Shown in pieces: positions 9,750 through 10,454 of a DNA stretch of 15,128 nt. The DNA is taken from IMG/VR virus record IMGVR_UViG_2663762996_000003, positions 1-15,128 of that record; one strand, 5' to 3'. Each line of letters opens with the position of its first letter. Position 1 is the first letter of the stretch. A program made the translations under genes and the position numbers. The DNA is from a virus (Duplodnaviria; Heunggongvirae; Uroviricota; Caudoviricetes). The notes under the pieces are model-generated. The model was not told the origin of the DNA. It did no database searches and worked only from the letters and a program-made list of their open reading frames with translations.

Positions 9750-10454
9750 ATGTCCTCTAATTTTGAGCGTTCGCAACTGACGAAAATTATGATTTCGTCT
9801 GCACCGGTAACAGCAGAAACCCTGGATTCTGCCAGCTATCTTGGCCTGAGCTGTACAATCAAAGAGGTGCAGTTTACCGCAGGACAAAAGCAGGATATTG
9901 ATGTCACCACGCTGTGTTCTGTTGAGCAGGAAAATATTAACGGCCTTGGTGCCGCGTCAGAGATTTCCATGTCAGGCAACTTTTACCTCAATGCTGCCCA
10001 GAACGCGTTGCGCAGTGCCTATGACAATGACACCACGTATGGCTTTAAAGTTATTTTTCCGTCAGGCAACGGATTTACCTTTATGGCAGAGGTGCGTCAG
10101 CATACCTGGTCTGCAGGAACTAATGGTGTTGTGGCTGCAACGTTTTCCCTGCGCCTGAAAGGTAAACCTGTGCTGACGACAGAGCCGCTGAAAGTGAAGG
10201 TCGATTTAAACAGCACGCTGCAGGTTTCTGCCGGAGCGAAACTCGAAATGGTGGTTGAGGCTGCCGGTGGTGTGCCGCCTTATTCTTATGTCTGGAAGAA
10301 AGGTAGTTCTCCTGTTTCCGGACAGACGGCGGCAACATTCAGTAAGGCATCAGCAGCATCAGGTGATGCCGGTGCGTATACCTGCGAGATTTCTGATTCA
10401 GCAAGCCCTGTTAACAAGGTGACCTCCACTTCCTGCACTGTTACCGTCAGTTAA
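9750..10454 (+). CDS. Major tail (tube) protein with C-terminal Ig-like domain
   Basis: AGGAG at 9739-9743 is 6 nt before ATG 9750; the ORF-track start at 9699 would place the terminator hairpin inside the gene. The C-terminal ~85 aa show an Ig-type pattern (PPYSYVWKKG...DAGAYTCEISD...CTVTV). Confidence 0.8.
   Translation: MSSNFERSQLTKIMISSAPVTAETLDSASYLGLSCTIKEVQFTAGQKQDIDVTTLCSVEQENINGLGAASEISMSGNFYLNAAQNALRSAYDNDTTYGFKVIFPSGNGFTFMAEVRQHTWSAGTNGVVAATFSLRLKGKPVLTTEPLKVKVDLNSTLQVSAGAKLEMVVEAAGGVPPYSYVWKKGSSPVSGQTAATFSKASAASGDAGAYTCEISDSASPVNKVTSTSCTVTVS

Follow-up and report, generated by a model that had tools for sequence, protein, structure and literature searches.

C-terminal immunoglobulin (Ig)-like domains project from the outside of the siphophage tail tubes of lambda, T5, SPP1 and YSD1 (PMC9022992). 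In lambda, the Ig-like domain of the tube protein gpV is accessory and lies on the tube exterior, and its loss leads to a substantially lower infection efficiency (PMC9022992). SPP1 gp17.1* also bears a C-terminal Ig-like tube decoration, which is not essential for tube formation (PMC9022992). For T4 Hoc, binding of its Ig domains to mucin glycans is described; on tube proteins, the specific function of Ig-like domains 'is unclear' (PMC9022992). Closest to the locus described here is HK97, whose gp12, together with ORF64 of BP-4795, has been listed as an I-set Ig-like tail tube protein (Table 3 of PMC9022992, following Fraser et al. 2006).

Here, we analysed a stretch of 15,128 nucleotides of Caudoviricetes DNA (IMG/VR record IMGVR_UViG_2663762996_000003, positions 1 to 15,128; hereafter the window), in which a first-pass annotation made from the letters alone had proposed an Ig-like domain at the C-terminus of the major tail tube protein. 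The domain is indeed there. We describe its family, its fold and its genomic setting, and we weigh what it might do on the tail.

Results

The tube protein gene occupies positions 9750-10454 of the plus strand (234 amino acids plus stop) and encodes a homologue of HK97 gp12. Its product matches PHROG 158 ('major tail protein') over residues 1-234 with an E-value of 3.9e-108 in the PHROGs search. In tblastn searches against phage genomes it is 71.9% identical over residues 1-221 to the product of HK97 gene 12 ('major tail subunit') and ~73% identical to homologues from Stx phages (BP-4795, 2851 and others), and the PGAP annotation holds the same CDS, 9750-10454, as WP_000097533.1, 'phage tail protein'. 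The Pfam tube models all scored below their curated cut-offs on this protein (Phage_TTP_11, 22.5 versus 28.4 bits; Phage_tail_2, 20.4 versus 23.8 bits; Phage_TTP_12, 16.3 versus 26.1 bits). As these models are too distant, its membership of the tube proteins is based on PHROG 158, the identity to HK97, the fold and the gene context.

This context is that of a standard HK97-type head-tail module. On the 5' side Pfam identifies, in order, capsid, gp6-like connector, head completion, HK97-gp10-like and Tail_completion_gp17 genes, and on the 3' side Phage_TAC_1, Phage_tail_T and a 1081-aa tape measure protein, so that the tube gene follows the tail completion gene and precedes the G/GT chaperone pair and the tape measure gene. 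Phage Evi and RefSeq E. coli chromosomes contain DNA nearly identical to this region, and their annotation shows the same order. The DNA is that of a chromosomal prophage and recurs in 901 of 5426 complete E. coli genomes, mostly at a DNA identity of at least 95%. Judged by its sequence, the protein is the major tail tube subunit of a temperate, HK97-like siphophage that resides in E. coli as a prophage. The first-pass annotation had named it so, and PHROG 158, the 72% identity to HK97 gp12, the fold and the gene order all agree with that name.

Several other elements of the module deserve a brief description. The tail assembly chaperone pair spans 10469-11142, with the Phage_TAC_1 ORF at 10469-10840 and the Phage_tail_T ORF running to 11142. 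The former ends in ...GTT AAA AAA AAG TAG and contains the heptamer A_AAA_AAG, a slippery site at 10831-10837, past which the -1 frame reads KKVELPGMRF... into the Phage_tail_T ORF; the sequence is that of the standard -1 programmed frameshift site of G/GT chaperone pairs, annotated likewise for HK97 gp13/gp14. A 62-aa ORF at 8051-8239, between the major capsid and head-tail connector genes, is a 'hypothetical protein' in RefSeq (WP_000601355.1) and absent from the annotation of phage Evi. Further 5', the ORFs 4697-6025 (442 aa) and 6093-6779 would, solely by their position, be the candidate portal and protease genes. The end of the first of them is overlapped by the strongest hairpin in the window, a perfect inverted repeat with an 11-bp stem at 6009-6034, just before the second ORF, which reads GCCAGTCAGTT-AAGC-AACTGACTGGC on the minus strand and is followed there by a T-rich run.

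Where does the tube protein start? A single long plus-strand ORF, 9699-10454, runs across the coordinates of the Ig domain, and the first-pass annotation had preferred the downstream ATG 9750 on account of a terminator-like hairpin lying just upstream. Our terminator scan found this hairpin on the plus strand between the tail completion and tube genes, at 9712-9737 including its T-run: six G-C pairs enclose a 3-nt loop (CCCGCC-GCT-GGCGGG, 9712-9726), followed by GTTTTTATTTT. It is the sole element kept in the centroid RNA fold. As a whole, the RNA fold of 9685-9760 shows no unusual stability (z = -1.0), and since only the 6-bp GC hairpin is robust, we do not claim a larger regulatory structure. 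A Shine-Dalgarno sequence, AGGAGA, follows at 9739-9744 of the plus strand, 5 nt before ATG 9750, and is invariant in the window, HK97 and Evi. When the window is aligned with HK97, the hairpin, the T-run, AGGAGA and the ATG are conserved, whereas the surrounding intergenic sequence diverges, and the HK97 record annotates the same hairpin as 'terminator, putative' at 6692-6719, directly upstream of gene 12.

The preference for ATG 9750 is therefore borne out by the PGAP start, which corresponds to this codon, by the Shine-Dalgarno sequence and ATG shared with HK97, by the terminator annotation, and by the alignment at the upstream codon, where HK97 carries TTC. A GAGG lies 6 nt upstream of ATG 9699, so that the Shine-Dalgarno sequence by itself does not settle the choice. 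We rejected the long start because its 17-codon extension would be encoded by the hairpin and its T-run, because of the TTC in HK97, and because both PGAP and the authors of the HK97 record take the downstream ATG. A 251-aa ORF from ATG 9699 is called in the record of phage Evi (L001 9400-10155) and in many metagenome calls; one such 251-aa cluster, P0002, has 1760 members, and in such a CDS the terminator hairpin falls inside the coding sequence. These 251-aa calls are very likely over-extended at the start, probably as a systematic error.

The tape measure gene starts at 11182, and the 40 nt that separate it from the T ORF contain a second terminator-like hairpin (AACCGC-TTCG-GCGGTT, 11151-11166, then TTTTT to ~11172). 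A putative terminator is annotated at the corresponding site of HK97, where, however, it comes after the moron gp15, which precedes the tape measure gene in HK97 and is missing from the window prophage. A further terminator, annotated in HK97 immediately behind gene 12, is likewise absent from the window.

For the structure we used AlphaFold2 (AF2) with a 64-sequence alignment (A1), which gave a model of mean pLDDT 81.5; a single-sequence run (mean pLDDT 35) was discarded. The best PDB match of the whole model in Foldseek is full-length lambda gpV (7t4f, E 8e-9). Residues 1-140 (9750-10169, plus strand) form the tube-forming domain, to which Foldseek and weak Pfam matches attest, and end in a KGKP motif (137-140) that is nearly invariant in A1. 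This domain resembles the lambda gpV tube domain (8k36, 7t2e; E ~1e-5, TMt 0.56-0.57) and also matches the tube proteins of a GTA and a monocin, with E-values from 1e-5 to 4e-4 and TMt from 0.5 to 0.6 over these matches. A loop of low pLDDT at residues 46-67 falls at the site where tube proteins bear a long inter-ring loop. The domain is followed by a poorly conserved linker of residues ~141-147 (10170-10190, plus strand), or about 141-153 when delimited by conservation: in the homologue alignment, residues 141-153 show 15-38% identity where the two flanking domains show 64-83% and 42-62%. The monomer model is not informative on the relative orientation of these domains (pTM 0.63).

Is the C-terminal part a genuine Ig domain? 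The plus-strand stretch 10191-10451 translates exactly to the peptide quoted in the first-pass annotation, that is residues 148-234 counted from ATG 9750, and the Y.Y.W, DAG.Y.C and V.V spacing on which the proposal had been built is all present, at YSYVW (178-182), DAGAYTC (206-212) and TVTVS (230-234). Pfam Ig_2 exceeds its gathering score of 27 both with the whole protein (28.4 bits) and with the domain alone (29.7 bits). Ig_3 (28.0 and 29.4 bits; cut-off 30) and I-set (18.3 and 21.6 bits; cut-off 23.7) fall just short. The suggested search against Ig-like and Big_2 profiles thus succeeded in its Ig-like part only: Pfam Big_2 gave no match at E<=1 with the whole protein or at E<=0.001 with the domain alone, and the Big_2 assignment is rejected. 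We also dismissed an SprB repeat (19.7 bits; cut-off 28) as a short sub-threshold overlap of 18 residues around GGVPPYSY.

Searches beyond Pfam lead to phage decoration proteins. 'Hoc-like head decoration' families of PHROGs match at E-values of 3e-24 and 4e-15. Using phmmer against the PDB, we found a tail protein of Shigella phage Sf14 with three Ig domains (9c2d, E 3.6e-26 over three repeats), the T5 decoration protein pb10 (8zvi, E 1.9e-15; 5lxk, the isolated Ig domain, E 8e-14) and the neck whisker gp24 of Sf11 (9occ, E 1.4e-10), with matches covering residues ~140-233; animal Ig domains (CEACAM, MDGA1, Dscam) matched more weakly. The domain thus belongs, with those of T4 Hoc and T5 pb10, to the Ig superfamily in the strict sense (Pfam Ig_2/Ig_3/I-set), and not to Big_2; we describe it as an I-set/Ig_2-type decoration domain.

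Across 54 Ig-bearing homologues, the motif residues are strongly conserved (Y178, W182 and G208, 98% each; D206, Y210 and C212, 91% each; V231, 89%). With these, the positions conserved at 85% or more include L153, G162, V169, G173-G174, P177, F197, D216, S226 and C229. The core tryptophan W182 and the D206-x-G208-x-Y210-x-C212 motif we take, by the textbook Ig signature, to lie in strands C and F. Since the conserved residues of the domain are mostly such classical signature positions, a ligand site is not evident at the level of the alignment. Within residues 141-234 the only cysteines are C212 and C229, with none upstream of W182, so that the classical inter-sheet disulfide between strands B and F is absent. 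The domain differs in this from classical Ig domains; we do not regard the disulfide as necessary for membership of the Pfam families.

The predicted structure leads to the same assignment. Residues 150-234 are modelled at pLDDT 91-95 with strands as their only secondary structure, and Foldseek superposed the domain over 90 columns on the Ig C2 domain of MALT1 (3bfo; rmsd 1.4 Å, TMt 0.89). Hoc of Salmonella phage wast is also a match (34% identity, rmsd 1.0 Å, TMt 0.91), as are the capsid decoration proteins of N4 and Moo19. The structure prediction suggested as a check in the first-pass annotation thus gave a confident, all-beta domain resembling known Ig domains. The absence of a significant profile match and of a beta-sandwich had been named as refuting observations; both the match and the sandwich were found, and the Ig reading therefore stands. 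With Ig_2 above its gathering score, the high pLDDT and the close superposition on 3bfo, an Ig-fold domain in the last ~85 residues of the tail tube protein is as good as certain.

Could the Ig motif have arisen by chance, or could the domain be added to a minority of the subunits by programmed frameshifting, as in SPP1 gp17.1*? Both are extremely improbable. A chance resemblance is refuted by the profile, PDB and fold matches, all of which are highly significant. Some other tail tube proteins are known to gain Ig-like domains by frameshifting (PMC9022992); in SPP1 gp17.1* it is an FN3 domain, which a +1 frameshift adds to a fraction of the subunits. In the window, by contrast, the tube and Ig parts lie in one unbroken frame, 9750-10451, with no stop at the boundary, and no X_XXY_YYZ slippery heptamer was seen by eye at the boundary 10155-10190. 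As the frame is continuous across the boundary, we rejected a frameshift-dependent addition; the in-frame domain would be carried by every subunit.

Is the Ig domain a fixed part of this tube protein? The mean identity of 53 full-length homologues to the window protein is 75.5% in the tube domain and 54.4% in the Ig domain, and this faster divergence of the Ig domain fits an accessory, exchangeable module. In some homologues the identities of the two domains are discordant: P0009 is 84% identical in the N-terminal and 91% in the C-terminal domain, P0007 98% and 81%, and P0101 74% and 28% (C-terminal values of 23-28% when the relatives of P0101 are included), which points to exchange at or near the linker. 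Other orthologues have no Ig domain at all. That of Salmonella phage FSL SP-016 has 147 aa and is 80% identical over residues 1-140; the chaperone gene comes directly after its gene, and the gene order is otherwise unchanged. Several further 147-aa clusters end in ...KGKPENIESGS without an Ig domain, some of them on megabase-length contigs, and in tblastn the more distant tube proteins of Burkholderia, Morganella, Cronobacter and Halomonas phages match residues 1-146 only. From these Ig-less orthologues it is reasonable to conclude, if indirectly, that the Ig domain is not needed for tube formation, and the earlier statement that such domains are accessory to tube assembly gains indirect support from them.

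A different type of variant was seen in three E. coli clusters (P0011, P0013 and P0015), whose 204-aa proteins have an in-frame deletion of 30 residues in the tube domain (residues 77-106; 9978-10067 of the window) and an intact Ig domain. These may stem from decaying prophages with a non-functional tube.

Discussion

The two-domain architecture of the window protein is already known from HK97 gp12, of which it is a sequence variant only. We compared it with a group comprising gp12, the HK022-group phages and the Stx phages BP-4795 (ORF64) and 2851. HK97 gp12 and its Stx-phage relatives are 71.9-73.4% identical to it at the amino acid level over residues 1-218/221, a stretch that comprises the tube domain and the greater part of the Ig domain. 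With a CDS of likewise 705 nt, HK97 gp12 falls in the same length class as the 234-aa protein described here, and HK97 shares the gene order as well as the upstream hairpin, Shine-Dalgarno sequence and ATG. The Ig domain is ~57% identical to the HK97 type and the tube domain ~83%. These values come from the 238-aa clusters P0019 and P0021, for one of which a source gives the name 'major tail subunit'. Many cluster members bear the NCBI names 'immunoglobulin domain-containing protein' or 'phage tail protein'.

Lambda gpV has the same two-domain architecture and is the closest full-length fold in the PDB, but shares only 16-18% sequence identity, and its C-terminal domain is a Big_2 domain (PMC9022992), whereas that of the window matches Ig_2/Ig_3/I-set. 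In T5 pb10 (its C-terminal domain), T4 Hoc and Hoc-like proteins, it is the Ig domain itself that is homologous to the one described here; there it sits on capsid-binding proteins, whereas in the window it is fused to the tube protein. Hoc is reported to bind mucin (PMC9022992), and the window protein may bind glycans.

What could be the role of such a domain on the tail? Weak adhesion to carbohydrates of the cell surface and a part accessory to tube assembly are hypotheses of long standing in the field. We consider it likely that the protein is a two-domain tube protein with an outward, accessory Ig domain for weak multivalent glycan adhesion; the two-domain structure follows from the matches and the model, and display and binding from comparison with other phages. 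Residues 1-140 would act as a standard tube module that polymerises as stacked hexameric rings around the tape measure protein. After the short variable linker, residues ~148-234 would fold as an I-set/Ig_2-type beta-sandwich like those of T4 Hoc and T5 pb10 and, by analogy with lambda gpV and T5 pb6, would project from the tube exterior. With one copy per subunit and six per ring, the tail would display hundreds of Ig domains, which may bind weakly and multivalently to glycans of the bacterial envelope or of gut mucus. Such binding could hold the virion near susceptible cells and thereby increase the encounter rate and the adsorption efficiency, and the domain would be dispensable for building the tube. 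For the function of the Ig domain, adhesion is the best-supported mechanism, which we infer at roughly even chances.

Alternatively, and as the chief competitor of adhesion, the Ig domain might be mainly structural and, without any external ligand, pack on neighbouring subunits, stabilise or stiffen the tail or aid polymerisation. In YSD1 an inserted Ig-like domain wraps adjacent subunits at a position analogous to that of the C-terminal domains of lambda and T5 (PMC9022992), the loss of infection efficiency in lambda described above would agree with a structural role, and most of the enterobacterial homologues found retain the domain. However, orthologues with 75-80% identical tube domains lack it wholly in apparently intact tail modules, and its faster evolution and independent exchange would be unexpected for an interface that co-evolves with the tube. 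Moreover, the density of the C-terminal Ig domains of lambda and YSD1 is weak because the domain is flexible (PMC9022992). We thus regard a mainly structural role as unlikely.

Very improbable, in our view, is a neutral passenger, i.e. a promiscuous module that is spread by recombination between structural genes of phages and tolerated since it folds independently. Domains of this type are found in unrelated phages on proteins that decorate the capsid, on neck whiskers and on tail proteins, which would fit such a passenger, as would the mosaic presence, absence and identity of the domain. Yet the ORF is intact, the Ig signature positions are 85-100% conserved in the 54 homologues at domain identities down to 23-60%, and the region is kept in the 901 E. 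coli genomes, mostly with little DNA divergence. The intact frame, the conserved signature and this retention together argue for purifying selection on the fold.

The adhesion proposed above could also have an evolutionary side. Prophages of E. coli, Klebsiella and Pectobacterium might exchange alleles of the Ig domain without regard to the tube domain, and the Ig domain might then represent a determinant of host range or niche under diversifying exchange. We speculate on this as a quite unlikely reading, with which the discordant domain identities of P0009, P0007 and P0101 and the Ig-less orthologues are compatible. If it were true, different alleles would recognise different O-antigen, capsule or mucin glycans, and the tail shaft, not only its tip, would contribute to specificity.

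In summary, the window carries a common E. coli prophage tube protein that is of little importance beyond its correct annotation. HK97 gp12 had been catalogued with this two-domain architecture by 2006, and reviews have repeated it (PMC9022992). Two gains in annotation follow: the domain should be named as Ig-superfamily (I-set/Ig_2) and not as Big_2, and the gene starts at ATG 9750, with the 251-aa calls of some GenBank records wrongly taking in the hairpin. The Ig-less orthologues and the mosaic domain identities offer ready material for testing Ig domains displayed on the tail shaft.
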